Positions 4,752 through 49,626 of a stretch of DNA of 64,000 nt are shown here, one piece after another. The notes under the pieces were generated by a model that had not been told where the DNA came from, searched no databases, and saw only the letters and a program-made list of their open reading frames with translations. The number at the start of each line of letters is the position of its first letter. Position 1 is the first letter of the stretch. The translations under genes were made by a program, and so were the position numbers. Source of the stretch: a virus; IMG/VR virus record IMGVR_UViG_3300047476_001246. One strand, written 5' to 3'.

Positions 4752-5423
4752 TTATTCCCATGCTACCATTTTAAAACGTTCTCTCGCAATACCAAAATAT
4801 TTACACTTGTAATCGCTCTGTGCAAAAAAGTCCAGGTGGTGCCATTCTGATTTTTTCTTTAGCAATTGTTGTGCAGCATCGTCCCAATCAATGTTGGCCA
4901 GTACCGGTTCAACTGCTTGTTTGACTTCTGCAAGTTCATTGTAATCAAACCCGTCGTATTCCCAATGCAGTATTTCAAAGCAATTGCCGTATGCATCAGC
5001 ATAGTCCATGCTAAAATCAAGTCCCCATTTTGGGCGTAATCTAATCAGTTGCCAAATACGTGGAAAGTATTTGGTCCACATCTTTAGTTGACTGAGTGCT
5101 TCACCTTCAAACCCTTTGCGTTCAAACAATAAACTGTGATTTAGTATAGCACCTTCTACTTTGTCAGCCTGATCAAACCAGGGCTGTTTGATTGCTGTTC
5201 TATGACTACGGTGCGATTTAGTTTCTACTAAATTTACCGCAGCAAACATTTTTTCTAGCTCGGTTAGATCGTAGCCGTTCTGATCAAATAAATCTAAGTG
5301 GGGTATTTTAGGGGCAAAATATCCTGGAAGAGGAATCAACCAATACCCATCAGGATTCCATGTGTTATCGGTAAGTACAAAATCTTTCATTAATCTTTGA
5401 CTATTGGGCCACCGGTGATCCAT
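4752..5423 (-). CDS. Hypothetical protein
   Basis: Long ORF in a co-oriented gene run; start may be 5389. Confidence 0.7.
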   Translation of the reverse strand: MDHRWPNSQRLMKDFVLTDNTWNPDGYWLIPLPGYFAPKIPHLDLFDQNGYDLTELEKMFAAVNLVETKSHRSHRTAIKQPWFDQADKVEGAILNHSLLFERKGFEGEALSQLKMWTKYFPRIWQLIRLRPKWGLDFSMDYADAYGNCFEILHWEYDGFDYNELAEVKQAVEPVLANIDWDDAAQQLLKKKSEWHHLDFFAQSDYKCKYFGIARERFKMVAWE

Positions 5424-5806
5424 AGTTCACAACTGCGACTACCGGCGCATTTAAAGTGTAGCAAGTTGCAATAACCTAGGTCTGCGGCTTCGCGAGTTTT
5501 TTCTGCTTTGTATGCTTCTGCACCCATGCCGTCATGAATGCATTTATACATACTGTCAGAGATATTAAAAGCAGCACAGTTGCCACATGTCATTGACTTT
5601 GCAGTCTTTTCATCTATCTTCCATTGCCGGGCTGCTTGTTTCCAGTAGTTGCCAGGCTGATCAGGATTGGCAGGGCCATAATGATGTTTATCTATCGCAG
5701 TCTGACGATTCTTTACATTTAGTTCTAAATCGTACGTGGCTCTAGGACAATTTTTGCCTGCTGCTTCTACCAGTTGTATCAAGTTTCTCATTTCAATCAC
5801 GCCCAA
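5390..5806 (-). CDS. Cys-rich hypothetical protein, possible Fe-S binding
   Basis: CGNC...C...C...CELW; likely start MRNLIQLVE. Confidence 0.65.
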   Translation of the reverse strand: MGVIEMRNLIQLVEAAGKNCPRATYDLELNVKNRQTAIDKHHYGPANPDQPGNYWKQAARQWKIDEKTAKSMTCGNCAAFNISDSMYKCIHDGMGAEAYKAEKTREAADLGYCNLLHFKCAGSRSCELWITGGPIVKD

Positions 5807-8105
5807 ACAAACGATTTATGATGCTGACATTTTTACTGCTCGAATCTTGGGGTGAACGAACTACATTGGTGATTTCTTGATTGACTGCATTTTGTACATC
5901 ATCGCGATCAATTCCGGCTAATTTTTTAATTGTACGTAAAGCACCAATTGCTTGATCTGCCGGATGAGGTTGTTCTCTTGGATTGGGGTCTGATATAGTA
6001 GGTATTTGTTCAGCCACAGGTTCTGGTGGCATCATGCGTTTAATATCAGACTTGTTTAGATTAGGTGGTCCATTTGCTGCGCCATACTCATCTACTTTTT
6101 TTTTAATTGGCACGCAATTATTAACTCGAACATCACCTTTCATTTTAGTACCAGCTTTACGATAACCTTTCCAGCACTTGGGATCCAATCTAGTTTTTTC
6201 TTCGAGAATGCTGTATCCGGCACGTTCTAATTCTTCAATATAACGTTCAACATCTTCGTTTGTGATACTGCTTTCTCCAAATCGATCTCTGTAAGTATTG
6301 GCTTTCATGCTATTTTTACTACCAATTACAGCATGTCCTTCGCCACTTAATAATAAATCGTACATCAGTTTAATAATTTTAAGCGGACTGTCCATACGAT
6401 CAAGTGCAGCATTAAACCAAGCAACTTTTTCAGGCTTCATTGGTCGTTCGCTAGGTTTAGAAATCAATGCCAAAGCTTGTGCTCGTAGAGTTGGCAAGTC
6501 TCTTATTCTTTCAAGATTCTTGATATCCTCGATGTCAAAATTAACTTCTTGTTTACGTGCTTCTTTGACTTGATATTTCTTCTTTAGTTCTGCTGCCTTA
6601 GCATATCTTTCTTTGTCAGGAAGATCGTATGTAGCCTTTAACTCTTTGTAATAGTCAGGATCGGGCAGGCCAGATTTTTTTCTTAATTCTTGGTGACGCT
6701 TGTGTAGTTTATCTTGCACAGAACCTTCCGCCACACCTTCTGGCAAAGCATTTTTAGCAAAGTTCTTTATAACACGCAATGCATCTCTTGCACCGTCACT
6801 GCCACTTTCTACCCAATTGGTTTTACCAGCTCTTCCTGCGATTCCCAATGCCCAATACACTGTGCCTGAATCTGCTGGATCCATTTCAACTTCAATCACT
6901 TTCTTACCATCAGTCCAGCTATAAGTATCGCCTGACTGTGAGCCTGTATAATCTACTAAAAAGTCATCAACTAGTTCTAAGAAACTTCTACCAGCGCCTT
7001 CCGCCACATCTTTTGGGAGAATTTTTGCAACGCCTACCATTTGATCCCGGGGTTCAATGGGCTGTCGGCCGCGTTCCTGTTCTTTACGCTTTTGTGCTGC
7101 TAGATCCGCTACACTACCTTTGCGTGGCTTCTTGGCACCGTATGAGAATGGTCCTGCTTCATCTATATCGGTAAATCGTTCCCAAGCTCGATTAGCTGTC
7201 TGTTGATTTTTTCGAGCATAAGCAGGATCTTTATCTGCTTGTTTAGATACCACTCTGTCAACTGCTCGCTTGTGAACTTTAGTTAGCTGCTTCTGACCTT
7301 TGGCCGTATCGCCATATTCTTTTAAATCTTTATTTTGATTTTTTTGCATCATTGTTTTAGGATCCAGATCGGCTCCTAATTGCATATCTCTGGTGTCAGA
7401 CACACCAACACCACCTGACCCACCACCTCCACGTCCAATGTTTTTTGCATGGCTAATCAATGAATCAGCTTTATCTCTAGCGTCCGCTACGCGACGAAGT
7501 GAAGCACCCAATGCATTTGCTTTTGGATCTGCGTTGGGATTTTGGCGGCCCATAGCAGCATTCCAGAAGTCATCACTATCGGTTATGCCTTCTGCCACAT
7601 CTTGTTCGTACATAGTGGCTGACTTAATAGGAACACCACGAGGATTGGTTGCAGGAGCAGTTCTTGCACCAGGGGTAAGCTTAGGATTGGCCATTACGGC
7701 TGCATCTTGTGCTGGCTCTTTGGCTCGCATGGCCTGATAATCACGTTCGATTTGTTGCGGAGACATAATACCTAACTTGTCAAAATCTGCTTGATTGCCT
7801 GAAGCAAATGCTTGATCAATTGCCTGACCTTGCGCCTTCATTTGCGGAGTATTATATTGTGCAGTTAAACGATCATCAATGGCATCTTCGTTAACATCTT
7901 TTTTGTGCTTTTTAACATCATTGTCGAGTTGTTTACTGGTAGCTTTAACAATACCTTTAAATCTCTTGTTGCCTTGTTCAACGTCTCCGCGTTTGTCTGC
8001 TGCACTGGCATCTGCCCCTGCGGCTTTTTTATAACGACCCAGTAATTCATTACTGACTTCGTTTAATTCTTTATTTTTGTCGTTAAAGATATCGTTAATA
8101 AACAT
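5793..8105 (-). CDS. Large modular hydrophilic protein, probable head-packaged polyprotein
   Basis: 770 aa of short modules separated by (L/V/I)xE sites and three VAEG linkers. Confidence 0.7.
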   Translation of the reverse strand: MFINDIFNDKNKELNEVSNELLGRYKKAAGADASAADKRGDVEQGNKRFKGIVKATSKQLDNDVKKHKKDVNEDAIDDRLTAQYNTPQMKAQGQAIDQAFASGNQADFDKLGIMSPQQIERDYQAMRAKEPAQDAAVMANPKLTPGARTAPATNPRGVPIKSATMYEQDVAEGITDSDDFWNAAMGRQNPNADPKANALGASLRRVADARDKADSLISHAKNIGRGGGGSGGVGVSDTRDMQLGADLDPKTMMQKNQNKDLKEYGDTAKGQKQLTKVHKRAVDRVVSKQADKDPAYARKNQQTANRAWERFTDIDEAGPFSYGAKKPRKGSVADLAAQKRKEQERGRQPIEPRDQMVGVAKILPKDVAEGAGRSFLELVDDFLVDYTGSQSGDTYSWTDGKKVIEVEMDPADSGTVYWALGIAGRAGKTNWVESGSDGARDALRVIKNFAKNALPEGVAEGSVQDKLHKRHQELRKKSGLPDPDYYKELKATYDLPDKERYAKAAELKKKYQVKEARKQEVNFDIEDIKNLERIRDLPTLRAQALALISKPSERPMKPEKVAWFNAALDRMDSPLKIIKLMYDLLLSGEGHAVIGSKNSMKANTYRDRFGESSITNEDVERYIEELERAGYSILEEKTRLDPKCWKGYRKAGTKMKGDVRVNNCVPIKKKVDEYGAANGPPNLNKSDIKRMMPPEPVAEQIPTISDPNPREQPHPADQAIGALRTIKKLAGIDRDDVQNAVNQEITNVVRSPQDSSSKNVSIINRLFGRD

Positions 8106-8109
8106 AATT

Positions 8110-9231
8110 TTACGCCTGTGATCTTAATGCTGCAACTTGACTCATGAGGTCTTCTATTTGTCTGCTTAGTTGTACTTTTTGTGCCTGCTGTTGTTGCAAG
8201 CTCATTGCTTTCTCAACTGGATTTGCACCTTGTGGAAACTGTTTGTTTAAATCGGCCAACTGCGATCTAGCACCGTTAACTTGACCAATTAATCCCATTA
8301 ACTGATTGCGTTGATCTGCTTTACCTGCGACCTGTTGCGCTCGTTGAGCTGCAATTTCTACAGGATCGGCATCATCGTTGCCTGGTCCTACTGCTGTACC
8401 GGCTGCACCCCATTCTGATATGGTTGGTTCTGTTTCCTTCCAATTCGGCAACGGAGCGCGATATCTGCCTTTGTCCTGTCCGGGTACTTTTACATCTTGC
8501 ACGTTGTCTGTGTCTGACACTTTGTATTCTGGTCCTGGCTCTCTTGGGTTCTTGATTCCACGAATCAACTCTTGTGTGATTGGATCTTCGCGACCAGTGA
8601 CATCTCTCCAGTATTCATTGTAGTGCGGCGATCCTTTGGGCACTACTTCTTTTGTTCCATCTTTAAACTTGTGAAAAAATTGAACATCAGGATCATTATA
8701 ATCCAATTTATTTTTTGGAATATTGGCCGGTCTCTGCATTTCCACATCTACTGTTGTAGGTTCCTGCTCCCACTCATTGCCTTCTTGAACTCTTTTATCA
8801 GTATTTCGCCAATCTGTTTTTGGCGAGAGCTGTGCTGCTTGCCCCTGCTTAATGCTTTTAGCCACTTCTTTTTCATCAAATGGTCGTGGAATAGCATCAG
8901 CTATACCGCCGAGTGCGTCTCTTGTGGCACTGCCAGCTGAAACAATTTTATCAGCAGCTGATTTGACTGTATCACCAAATCCTTCTTTAAACTCTGTCCA
9001 TTCTTGAAATAAATCTCTTTTTACTGGGTCACTGTTGATAACTGTGCTCAATTCCTTTAATAAATTGTCCGAGCTTTCGTTGGCTCCAACCAATCTACCT
9101 GCATAAGGATGCTTCTTGGTGCCTTTGCGAGGCATAGGTTCACTGCCGCGAACTTGGTCACCTGGCTTTTGGCCTACCTTTTCTCCAGCAAAGCGATTCA
9201 TTGCTTCAAGTAAGTGACGCATATCACTCAT
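8110..9231 (-). CDS. Hypothetical modular protein, probable internal head protein
   Basis: 373 aa; N-terminus MSDMRHLLEA; C-terminal coiled coil. Confidence 0.65.
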   Translation of the reverse strand: MSDMRHLLEAMNRFAGEKVGQKPGDQVRGSEPMPRKGTKKHPYAGRLVGANESSDNLLKELSTVINSDPVKRDLFQEWTEFKEGFGDTVKSAADKIVSAGSATRDALGGIADAIPRPFDEKEVAKSIKQGQAAQLSPKTDWRNTDKRVQEGNEWEQEPTTVDVEMQRPANIPKNKLDYNDPDVQFFHKFKDGTKEVVPKGSPHYNEYWRDVTGREDPITQELIRGIKNPREPGPEYKVSDTDNVQDVKVPGQDKGRYRAPLPNWKETEPTISEWGAAGTAVGPGNDDADPVEIAAQRAQQVAGKADQRNQLMGLIGQVNGARSQLADLNKQFPQGANPVEKAMSLQQQQAQKVQLSRQIEDLMSQVAALRSQA

Positions 9232-10034
9232 TAGTATACACCTTTTCCTACATTTACTTTTTTAGGCTTGTGTGCATTACCTAGTTTCTTAGGAACACCC
9301 GATGTTGATTTGTGTGCAGGCCCGCCAATTGATGTAGCTACTGCACCAGCACTACTTGCGCCACCTGTAGCACTTTCCTTTACAGATTTTTTATTTTCGA
9401 AGTGTATAAATCTGGATTTTGCACCTTCAGGATCTTGCATAACACCAGCAGATCCACCACCACCGCCTCCTGCTTTTGGTCTTGAGCTTTTGTACATTGG
9501 ATCTCCGAGTGCATCGGTAGCAGTATTAGGAAGACCAAGTGTACCTGCTGCTCGTTGAATCAATGAAGGAGGATTGGGATTCCCTTTTACAACTTCGCCA
9601 CCTGATCTAATTACATCACCACGGGCGTTTCTTCCTTGATAATTACGAGCATTGTCATACCGCTCATTTTCTCTTCGTGCAGCAGCATCTCTTTCCTCAC
9701 CGGTTTCCCCTTCTTCAGAGATCAATGATTCTAAAGCATAGTCAGCAGCATCCTCAGCAAACACAGTCATTTCTGATTGCTGACTTGCTGCTTCGTATTT
9801 TAAATAATCGCGAACGCTTTCCAAGTACTGGCTTGCTAGGGTTAGTTTACTTTGTACCCAACCTTCAAGACCTTCTAGCTCGCTAATATCTTTAAGCAAA
9901 CGATGAATCTCAATTGCTGCTTGTGCAGACGAATACATCTGACTGCGAGCCATTTGCACTTCGTGGTCGCGATGCATGTCATCGGCTTCTTGTGCGATTG
10001 TGCTGTTTTCTACTATAAATTCTGTTGTTTTCAT
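9231..10034 (-). CDS. Hypothetical modular protein, probable internal head protein
   Basis: 267 aa; N-terminus MKTTEFIVE; ESATGGASSAG module. Confidence 0.65.
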   Translation of the reverse strand: MKTTEFIVENSTIAQEADDMHRDHEVQMARSQMYSSAQAAIEIHRLLKDISELEGLEGWVQSKLTLASQYLESVRDYLKYEAASQQSEMTVFAEDAADYALESLISEEGETGEERDAAARRENERYDNARNYQGRNARGDVIRSGGEVVKGNPNPPSLIQRAAGTLGLPNTATDALGDPMYKSSRPKAGGGGGGSAGVMQDPEGAKSRFIHFENKKSVKESATGGASSAGAVATSIGGPAHKSTSGVPKKLGNAHKPKKVNVGKGVY

Positions 10035-10059
10035 TTCAATACCTTACTGTATCTAATAT

Positions 10060-10368
10060 TTAGTAATTACAAGCAAAGGTCCATTGCTTGTTGTCATAAC
10101 CATCTTTGCCTGGCTGTTTGGGCATTTCTGCATTGTCTACTCGTAATTTAAGTAGCTGAAAATTTCCGCTATTGGAACAATTTTCTAATTTTATACAATG
10201 AACTCCGGGCGCTAAATCGCAAACTACATTTTCTTGTATGTAGTAATCGTAGCCGGCATAACCAAAAGTGCGTTCAGTGATCAAGTCGTCGTCTACGTAT
10301 ATTCTATAAACAGGAGGCTCACCGCTCCAGTGACAATGCACATCGAAGCGTAGCATTCTGTTAAACAT
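10060..10368 (-). CDS. Hypothetical beta-rich protein
   Basis: 102 aa, coupled to upstream gene. Confidence 0.6.
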   Translation of the reverse strand: MFNRMLRFDVHCHWSGEPPVYRIYVDDDLITERTFGYAGYDYYIQENVVCDLAPGVHCIKLENCSNSGNFQLLKLRVDNAEMPKQPGKDGYDNKQWTFACNY

Positions 10369-11273
10369 TATTTTTTCCTACCTTGGCAATGTGCCCGCTG
10401 ACTAAAGCCCTGTGGACGATTGCAATTGATACTGCGCTTGTACTTTGCGCTCCACTTTTCTTTTAACGTGTCTATTTCTTCTTTTAGCTTTTTGTAGCGT
10501 TTGGTCAAATGATATCCAGCCATCATCTTAGGCAAAGTAGCAGCAGTGACATCATTATCATCGCCCATGGTGGCCATACTATAACGTGGGTCATTGCCGT
10601 TTTTAACTACGCCAACTCCAGCTGCTTCTTCATTGACTGTTTGTGGGATTTTATCAAGCACACGCCCTAGTTCAGGATCATCTCTACCATACATTTGCAG
10701 CAAGTATTCGGATCTTGATTTGGGATTATCTCTTACTGCATTCCATGCAGCTCTCGCGGGAGTTCCATGACTGACATCTACCTGCTGCCCATTGATAGTA
10801 ATGACCTTTTGGCGCTCGTCGGCAATTATCACATAACCATGCTTGTCAGCAGTTGCACATTTGTCAAGACTTTCAAATGTTTTAAAATAGCCTGGAGTGC
10901 CGTCCTTTTTAACACTGTCTGGACGTAAACGATCACGGTCTGGAGCACCTACTGCTACAATAAAAATTGTGTTAGCAGGATTAAATTGTGGTTCAGGAAG
11001 TTTATAAGGACTTACTACTTCTAGGATGCGATCGCTGGGAATACCAGCTGCATTCATGAATACAGTTTTGTCGGAAAAATTAAACGGACTCTTTGGAGGT
11101 TCTACTTTGTTGCTGGTTGCAATGTACACATTGTCACGACCAAACTTGCTTTGTAGACTTTGGAATACTTCGCGATGTCCAAGATGGAATGGTTGAAAAC
11201 GGCCCGGGTAGAGTACTACCAATTGCGGGCCGGCTTCTGCTACATAACTTTCAAATAAATCAGCAATAAACAT
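10368..11273 (-). CDS. Cytidylyltransferase-like (HIGH) nucleotidyltransferase with appended C-terminal modules
   Basis: PGRFQPFHLGH motif. Confidence 0.8.
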   Translation of the reverse strand: MFIADLFESYVAEAGPQLVVLYPGRFQPFHLGHREVFQSLQSKFGRDNVYIATSNKVEPPKSPFNFSDKTVFMNAAGIPSDRILEVVSPYKLPEPQFNPANTIFIVAVGAPDRDRLRPDSVKKDGTPGYFKTFESLDKCATADKHGYVIIADERQKVITINGQQVDVSHGTPARAAWNAVRDNPKSRSEYLLQMYGRDDPELGRVLDKIPQTVNEEAAGVGVVKNGNDPRYSMATMGDDNDVTAATLPKMMAGYHLTKRYKKLKEEIDTLKEKWSAKYKRSINCNRPQGFSQRAHCQGRKK

Positions 11274-49182: not shown

Positions 49183-49626
49183 TTATTTCCGTGCAAGTTG
49201 CTCTACTTTTTTGATTGCTTCTGGAGTAGTTTCTTCCAATTGTTCTTCCGCCACATCTTGCTCACCATGACGAATACTTCCGTCCTTCATCAACTTCAAA
49301 TTGAGATTGTATTGTTTATTGTCGTGCTTGATTTTATTCATGCGACCTGCTTTGAAACCTTTGGCAAAGTATTGTTTATAGATACCACCATGCTGACTAT
49401 GCCAGTGGTTAATAGTCATTGCTCGTTCTAATGTAGCACCATCGGCAAGACTTACCCCTTTTGTGAAACCATCTTCTTGTGCCATCTTGGCAATTTCTGG
49501 ACTGAATCCTTCATCGTCATCGCCGCCGTTGAAACCATCTGGTGCAAATTCATTCAAGCCTTCTGCTACGCTTTTTTGGGCGTTTTCAATCAAATTGATA
49601 TAATCACGAATAGATTTGTTGTTCAT
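49183..49626 (-). CDS. Small late protein carrying a VAE-bounded insert
   Basis: TAAATA and AGGAG upstream; SVAEG...QDVAEE. Confidence 0.7.
   Translation of the reverse strand: MNNKSIRDYINLIENAQKSVAEGLNEFAPDGFNGGDDDEGFSPEIAKMAQEDGFTKGVSLADGATLERAMTINHWHSQHGGIYKQYFAKGFKAGRMNKIKHDNKQYNLNLKLMKDGSIRHGEQDVAEEQLEETTPEAIKKVEQLARK

Follow-up and report, generated by a model that had tools for sequence, protein, structure and literature searches.

A codon-locked linker joins the modules of candidate cargo polyproteins in giant phages

The 64,000-nucleotide (nt) stretch of viral DNA studied here, IMG/VR record IMGVR_UViG_3300047476_001246 (the window), carries on its minus strand a gene for a protein of 770 amino acids (aa) in which a short peptide, VAEG and its variants, recurs together with a nearly invariant run of DNA. 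We found that this linker is held fixed at silent positions across divergent phage contigs and that it bounds self-contained modules, which have been gained, lost and swapped there between genes and phages, as DNA comparison, the mapping of breakpoints and an exchange in a second carrier gene indicate; an earlier note, made from the sequence alone, had proposed such a shuffling of cassettes. On sequence evidence we regard it as fairly probable that this gene specifies, for a T4-related giant phage, a cargo polyprotein whose joints would serve both as protease sites and as recombination patches.

The linker and its fixed silent positions

Four copies of the motif are present in the window at the coordinates given by the earlier note; they are read as reverse complements, and the gene lies on the minus strand. 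Here and below an arrow marks the putative cut, from which residues are numbered back as P1, P2 and so on, and forward as P1'.

7587-7604, minus strand: linker 1, CAAGATGTGGCAGAAGGC, QDVAE↓G, codons GTG GCA GAA GGC
6996-7013, minus strand: linker 2, AAAGATGTGGCGGAAGGC, KDVAE↓G, codons GTG GCG GAA GGC
6723-6740, minus strand: linker 3, GAAGGTGTGGCGGAAGGT, EGVAE↓G, codons GGT GTG GCG GAA GGT
49243-49260, minus strand: fourth copy, 42 kb away in an open reading frame (ORF) of 147 aa, CAAGATGTGGCGGAAGAA, QDVAE↓E

With up to one mismatch, the 11-mer GTGGCGGAAGG had 5 matches in the window against 0.44 expected, and the 18-mer consensus, with up to three, had 4 against 0.01, all on the coding strand. 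The fifth 11-mer match (1338-1348), which by position arithmetic lies outside the VAEG frame, is probably due to chance. GTG makes up 19.8% of the Val codons of the window and GCG 6.8% of its Ala codons, so the choice of GTG GCG in the linkers is unusual.

The same preference was found in other phages. Among 34 distinct [GD]VAEG sites from 79 related loci, Val was encoded by GTG in 76% and Ala by GCG in 79%, and for 283 distinct linkers drawn from some 200 phage contigs the figures were 87% (background 20%) and 88% (background 10%), together with GGT in 97%, CAA in 97% and, at P1', GGC in 74%. Even the wobble base of the P6 codon was G whichever residue it encoded (GAG 73%, AAG 66%, CAG 84%), and the fixed stretch runs for about 19 nt from the P6 wobble to P1' (G CAA GGT GTG GCG GAA GGC) between unrelated flanks. 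A degenerate scan of IMG/VR, admitting any coding of EQGVAEG, gave at least 118 in-frame matches; among the 118 listed, 104 had GTG, 103 GCG, 110 GGT and 89 GAG, with unrelated flanking peptides and in contigs of 34-52% G+C (GC), a few high-GC matches using other codons. All the canonical matches listed were in frame. At both QGVAEG sites of contig G005 (L023, 206,751 bp) GTA GCA replaces GTG GCG, perhaps as a form of the joint peculiar to that lineage. The exact 21-mer GAGCAAGGTGTGGCGGAAGGC also occurs at L230 7041-7061, in a bacterial chromosome of 66% GC (metagenome-assembled genome (MAG) of Alphaproteobacteria, OZ219786.1), where it opens a small frame that looks helix-turn-helix- and transposase-like; this copy may reflect chance (about 0.3 matches expected) or transfer.

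Codon-pair bias does not account for GTG GCG, as GTG accounts for 13% of Val before Ala and GCG for 4-6% of Ala before Glu, and PVAEQ, a conserved, non-linker peptide, shows normal codon drift. Recent shared ancestry was likewise rejected, the silent sites of core genes being saturated: the protease genes of six motif-bearing contigs keep a third-position identity of just 28-54% at protein identities of 61-89%, and the lock on the linker must therefore reflect constraint. The DNA-level constraint that the earlier note had suspected from the third codon positions is thus borne out by the codon counts at the 34 and 283 sites, the codon-pair controls and the saturation of core genes.

Such a constraint could also lie in the messenger RNA (mRNA). 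The linker would then be a protease site or a mere spacer, its silent lock would serve as a translational pause or as an RNA-binding or processing site, and modules would be swapped at linkers simply because intact domains are selected for. Both GTG and GCG are rarely used codons, the sequence is rich in purines and in G and contains AAGG and GGAAGG, which resemble Shine-Dalgarno sites, and the lock is frequent at internal joints (173/252) and rare at N-terminal leader VAE sites (3/14), all of which would suit a signal in the transcript. We nevertheless consider this explanation rather unlikely, as the locked codons mix the commonest ones (CAA, GGT, GAA) with rare ones while GTC and GGG are avoided, a pause signal needs neither 19 fixed nt nor the wobble base of a variable residue, the window holds no antisense copy of the 18-mer consensus (at most three mismatches) that could act as a partner, and the unrelated flanks exclude a conserved structure. 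It is very improbable that the repeat is an artefact, produced by chimaeric assembly at a short shared repeat or by an adaptor or primer contaminant, even though nearly all the evidence comes from metagenome contigs: long ORFs carry the repeat in frame, its residues vary (D or G at P4; E, K or Q at P6), a peptide that obeys a protease rule is not expected from an artefact, and the same 616-aa architecture was found in three samples (L001-L003). Final-assembly k-mers, moreover, are normally longer than a repeat of about 19 nt.

Modules and breakpoints in the polyproteins

We examined module exchange by an all-against-all DNA comparison of 163 linker-bearing ORFs, in which the ends of homologous matches were counted. 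Matches of at least 92% identity had 104 ends, 49% of which fell inside the 18-nt linker and 63.5% within 6 nt (random expectation 2.9% and 5.4%); those of at least 85% identity had 283 ends, with 34% inside the linker and 44% within 6 nt (random expectation 2.6% and 4.5%). Judged from these matches, the share of exchange ends at the joint appears to rise with the recency of the exchange.

The cleanest cassette swap, as read from the sequences, involves the 147-aa carrier gene that holds the fourth linker. Its leader of 22 aa ends in SVAE↓G (49561-49569), and its GLNEF cassette, which in L179 has canonical linkers on both flanks, shares 91.7% identity with residues 399-506 of polyprotein P0067. 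The leader and tail recur in P0123 (135 aa), where they enclose a 53%-identical copy of the 91-aa cassette of the 770-aa protein, so one carrier gene accepts either cassette, and both are also found inside polyproteins.

The 770-aa protein is itself a mosaic of at least seven modules, one of which is predicted by AlphaFold2 to fold on its own. The parts of the two genes are as follows.

5793-8105, minus strand: mosaic polyprotein ORF of 770 aa; homologues each match part only; no Pfam family
7899-8105, minus strand: N-terminal leader, aa 1-69, followed by V71-N72-E73 (7887-7895); phrog_26930 match at aa 13-70
7158-7169, minus strand: degenerate junction DIDE↓AGPF, upstream of the AGPF module; homology to L004, L006 and L019 begins here
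6999-7157, minus strand: AGPF module, aa 317-369, basic, with linker 2 at its end (DNA comparison with relatives)
6726-6998, minus strand: 91-aa cassette, G370-E460, 273 bp between linkers 2 and 3; predicted alpha-beta5-alpha domain
6561-6569, minus strand: decayed site V513-K514-E515↓A; KVAE↓A in L004; colinear in relatives, codons unlocked
49183-49626, minus strand: 147-aa carrier gene, with leader, GLNEF cassette, locked QDVAE↓E (49243-49260) and 20-aa tail

Each of the 464 metagenome homologues of the 770-aa protein covers just 7-41% of it, at identities of up to 93%, and nearly all carry one to five copies of (K/D/Q)(E/K)QGVAE(G/A) motifs. The 69-aa leader is N-terminal and 80-92% identical in 29 of the 120 homologues listed, where it is followed some 5-8 residues downstream by [V/M]-x-E, often in the form of the canonical QGVAE↓G. 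No Pfam family was found in the 770-aa protein at E <= 0.01, tblastn against 50,697 phage records returned a single 44-aa match (cyanophage S-RIM32), and blastn gave none; modules of the homologues include cytidylyltransferase, ParB-N, LysM, RMF-like, DnaJ-CXXCXGXG zinc-finger and DUF6321. The most widespread part of the protein is a module of the form D-P-K-C-W-K-G-Y...N-C-V-P (aa 636-668, ~6100-6200, minus strand), which matches more than 50 IMG/VR loci, phrog_4359, phrog_727 and a hypothetical cyanophage S-RIM32 protein. Four linkers and a ParB-like module were also seen in a polyprotein encoded by L231, an 8,950-bp contig of 39% GC from an uncultured Bacteroidetes MAG, the binning of which is either a hint at the host or an error.

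Upstream of the AGPF junction L004, L006 and L019 carry unrelated sequences with the respective endings LDE, VDE and VDE, and other homologues have QGVAE↓AGPF. Seven loci share homology in the GSVQDKLH... module from GAAGG onward, downstream of five modules that are unrelated; in relatives, the endings just before it are GVAE, AVGE, GIDE, GVVE or GVSE. All junction variants keep Glu at P1 and Val, Ile or Leu at P3, and because the homology ends before both modules share this pattern, the junction rule can be written as [V/I/L]-x-E↓[G/A]. The expectation of the earlier note that insertions and deletions in relatives would start and end at the motif holds in part: linker-bounded module changes and 49% of the breakpoints agree with it, and a 64-aa insert in L005, L008 and L009 lies elsewhere. 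This insert (D-G-S-V-K-Y-E-F...; L005 790-982, L008 1547-1741, L009 1765-1966) is placed between R-D-R-F-G-E-S and V-T-N-E-D-V-E and has a canonical linker on neither side.

The 91-aa unit between linkers 2 and 3, which the earlier note had described as self-contained, was modelled by AlphaFold2 as a single compact domain (predicted local distance difference test score, pLDDT, 88.6; predicted template modelling score, pTM, 0.79) with a disordered linker tail. It is rare, with 17 matches among 1.84 billion representatives, and its copies in P0047, P0109/L010 and P0122, which are 84-89% identical in protein sequence, differ in what adjoins them on one side or both. We found no clear relative of the predicted fold among solved structures, as the best VIA-align hits (Mediator Med17C, TriTu immunity protein and frataxin; best Z 7.4) were at noise level.

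The concentration of breakpoints in the linker, together with a length and conservation typical of homing-endonuclease or site-specific recombination sites, would also suit a recognition site for a nuclease or recombinase (for example a homing-type endonuclease), at which a cut repaired from a co-infecting phage would lead to exchange. We judge this distinctly unlikely. The polyprotein genes of the window have no adjoining nuclease or recombinase gene, and none linked to the joint was found among the 20 window proteins scanned against PHROGs and the 5 scanned against Pfam; no co-occurring gene turned up, although no systematic co-occurrence search was made. The sequence is, besides, always in the coding frame, both in the canonical IMG/VR matches listed and in the 18-mer scan of the window.

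A putative head-protease site and its T4-type context

The gp21 protease of T4 cleaves after L/I-X-E (PMC9026906). The earlier note had read the linker as a prohead-protease site, and this stands insofar as the linker fits a T4-type site and relatives encode the protease; cleavage itself is a prediction. Peptidase_S77 was found in 6 of the 7 large motif-bearing contigs, including the complete contig G004, within a T4-like gp67-68-21-22-23 block, and the capsid proteins of these contigs have L-x-E↓(A/S/N/T) where T4 gp23 has LTE↓A. The capsid protein places the group nearest to the ~350-kb GAP32, CBB and 121Q-type phages, Vibrio phage 2.275.O and Sinorhizobium phage Phosso. No GVAEG-coding site (GGNGTNGCNGARGGN) was found in five cultured relatives (Vibrio phage 2.275.O, Phosso, GAP32, CBB and Atu_ph07). 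The window is syntenic with G004 (354,680 bp), where the counterpart by position of the 770-aa gene codes for a 979-aa protein that has just one 41-aa module in common with it; from such comparisons the polyprotein locus seems to hold different cargo in each phage. The counterpart (G004 68946-71882 and 67957-68943) opens, by eye, with a nucleotidyltransferase-like G-S...G-D-I-D motif.

At sequence level the 770-aa protein has the ending in hydrophobic-x-Glu that an N-terminal targeting propeptide would have, and several of its neighbours start in a similar way.

5390-5791, minus strand: 133-aa gene, start MRNLIQLVE↓A
8110-9231, minus strand: 373-aa gene, start MSDMRHLLE↓A
9231-10034, minus strand: 267-aa gene, start MKTTEFIVE↓N, which resembles the T4 capsid-targeting sequence (CTS) MKTYQEFIAE
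10368-11273, minus strand: 301-aa cytidylyltransferase-like gene, leader MFIADLFESYVAE↓A; VAE at 11235-11243, not codon-locked; phrog_395

Of the six genes in the region 5390-11273, four show [LIV]-x-E at residue 9-13, and 9 of the other 63 ORFs of the window have it inside their first 26 residues. This minus-strand run of Pfam-less genes with CTS-like leaders looks like a locus for internal proteins. The SYVAE leader of the 301-aa cytidylyltransferase-like protein is missing from its distant homologues, and the enzyme is also found fused into polyproteins P0047 and P0111. At its C-terminus (10368-10466, minus strand) lies a basic 32-aa Cys/His mini-module (W-S-x-K-Y-K-x-S-I-N-C...G-F-S-Q-R-A-H-C-x-G-R-K-K), which is also C-terminal in many polyproteins, right after a linker (e.g., L120, L143, L177 and L192). 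The T4 late-promoter octamer TATAAATA has no occurrence in the 64 kb against 3.9 expected, though the head genes of relatives are T4-like, so late expression cannot be argued from late promoters; a scan of the window for sigma-70 promoters and terminators was uninformative.

Proposed mechanism, known systems and meaning

A recombination joint is the best-supported reason for the fixed DNA, the breakpoints being observed and the mechanism proposed. The conserved leader of about 70 aa would carry the polyprotein into the prohead, where a gp21-type (Peptidase_S77) head protease would cut after Glu at every [V/I/L]-x-E↓[G/A] joint, and the freed modules of 50-150 aa would remain in the head and pass into the next host along with the DNA, like IPI-III and Alt of T4. 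At the DNA level, the canonical joint of about 19 nt would act as a short homology patch, and recombination between joints of one gene, of different genes or of co-infecting phages would delete, duplicate or swap whole cassettes in frame. Every new junction would regenerate a cut site, and cassettes with consensus joints would spread, so that silent positions would stay fixed. Tentatively, we propose that the linker is a maintained, dual-coded standard connector, at once cut site and homology patch of an integrase-free, intragenic exchange network. Through such a network uncultured giant phages might trade head-delivered mini-proteins; it could be an intragenic analogue of the integron, uniform because only consensus-ended cassettes spread, a suggestion that we put forward with equal reserve.

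Several observations weigh against the recombination-joint and cargo proposal. Unlocked degenerate sites (e.g., IDE, VGE and VSE) serve some junctions and exchanges, and about a third of the recent breakpoints fall elsewhere. A perfect core is no commoner in linkers at breakpoints than in the comparison class (63% against 59%, n=22 for the latter), as the mRNA explanation would have it, and this test therefore does not separate recombination from selection at the RNA level; breakpoints in linkers could be explained by selection for intact domains alone. For homologous recombination to be efficient, a shared stretch of 19 nt is short. Homogenisation within genomes left no sign either and was rejected as a cause of the lock, because minor codon variants show no clustering by locus or genome (7 observed against 3.6 expected, p = 0.08). 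As for the cargo role, the protease gene is absent from the 64-kb window, S77 being known from relatives only, and Foldseek returned nothing at E <= 0.001 for the model of the 91-aa cassette.

Parts of the proposed system have precedents. The likeness to IPI, IPII and IPIII, the internal proteins of T4, and to Alt (PMC9026906, PMC7411985) lies in the S77 protease of relatives, the hydrophobic-x-Glu rule, short N-terminal leaders (MKTTEFIVE here, MKTYQEFIAE in T4) and diverse, fast-evolving cargo. The targeting sequences of T4 ipII and ipIII are identical at 30/30 nt, a precedent for DNA-identical sites in paralogues, and T4 Alt is trimmed at both ends, as we propose for the product of the 147-aa carrier gene. 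Unlike in T4, many cargo units would share one ORF here, with the cut site recurring internally as a connector, and the linker DNA is fixed over hundreds of divergent contigs and not only among the paralogues of one phage. In phiKZ, 201phi2-1 and SPN3US a gp21 homologue cuts at (S/A)-X-E, often at several sites and with long propeptides (PMC5694885). Their ejection or inner-body proteins are likewise head cargo of giant phages, Glu cleavage being putative in our case, but they belong to another phage lineage with another P3 preference, and no cassette architecture or codon-locked site has been reported for them.

Polyvalent proteins (Iyer et al., 2017, PMC5512222) are similar in being long chains of unrelated small domains, and their proposed fate is delivery together with the DNA and processing into units. 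Classical ones have an embedded MPTase-type peptidase, whereas a Pfam scan found no peptidase domain in the 770-aa protein or in 10 homologues, and as the word 'linker' occurs nowhere in that paper, it describes no conserved linker of any kind, DNA-level ones included. Regarding exchange, the glycine-rich motifs of gp38 in T4-type phages flank variable segments and are crossover points (PMC3157838), and for PeSL cassettes mini-circles arising from recombination between flanking motifs have been shown (PMC2839356). Here too, conserved DNA of about 19 nt flanks variable segments and exchange points map to it (49% of recent breakpoints). The gp38 motifs, however, are structural core elements of a single protein and PeSLs are intergenic promoter-terminator units of ~50 bp or more, while the joint described here is intragenic, about 19 nt long, in frame and also codes for a putative protease site. 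We found no published description of the linker: EQGVAEG is absent from the literature searched, and the few papers with GVAEG or QGVAEG are not phage-related.

Strong selection on silent sites of phage genes is clear and needs explaining whichever mechanism holds. If the proposed reading is true, one short sequence would be both a cut site in the peptide and a crossover site in the DNA, and phages would diversify their arsenal of injected proteins fast while keeping reading frames and processing sites intact. Many of the cargo modules are likely to be anti-defence or takeover proteins of unknown fold, and the 19-mer would be a sequence handle with which to find such head-delivered modules in metagenomes, as well as a design rule for swappable cargo in T4-type capsids.

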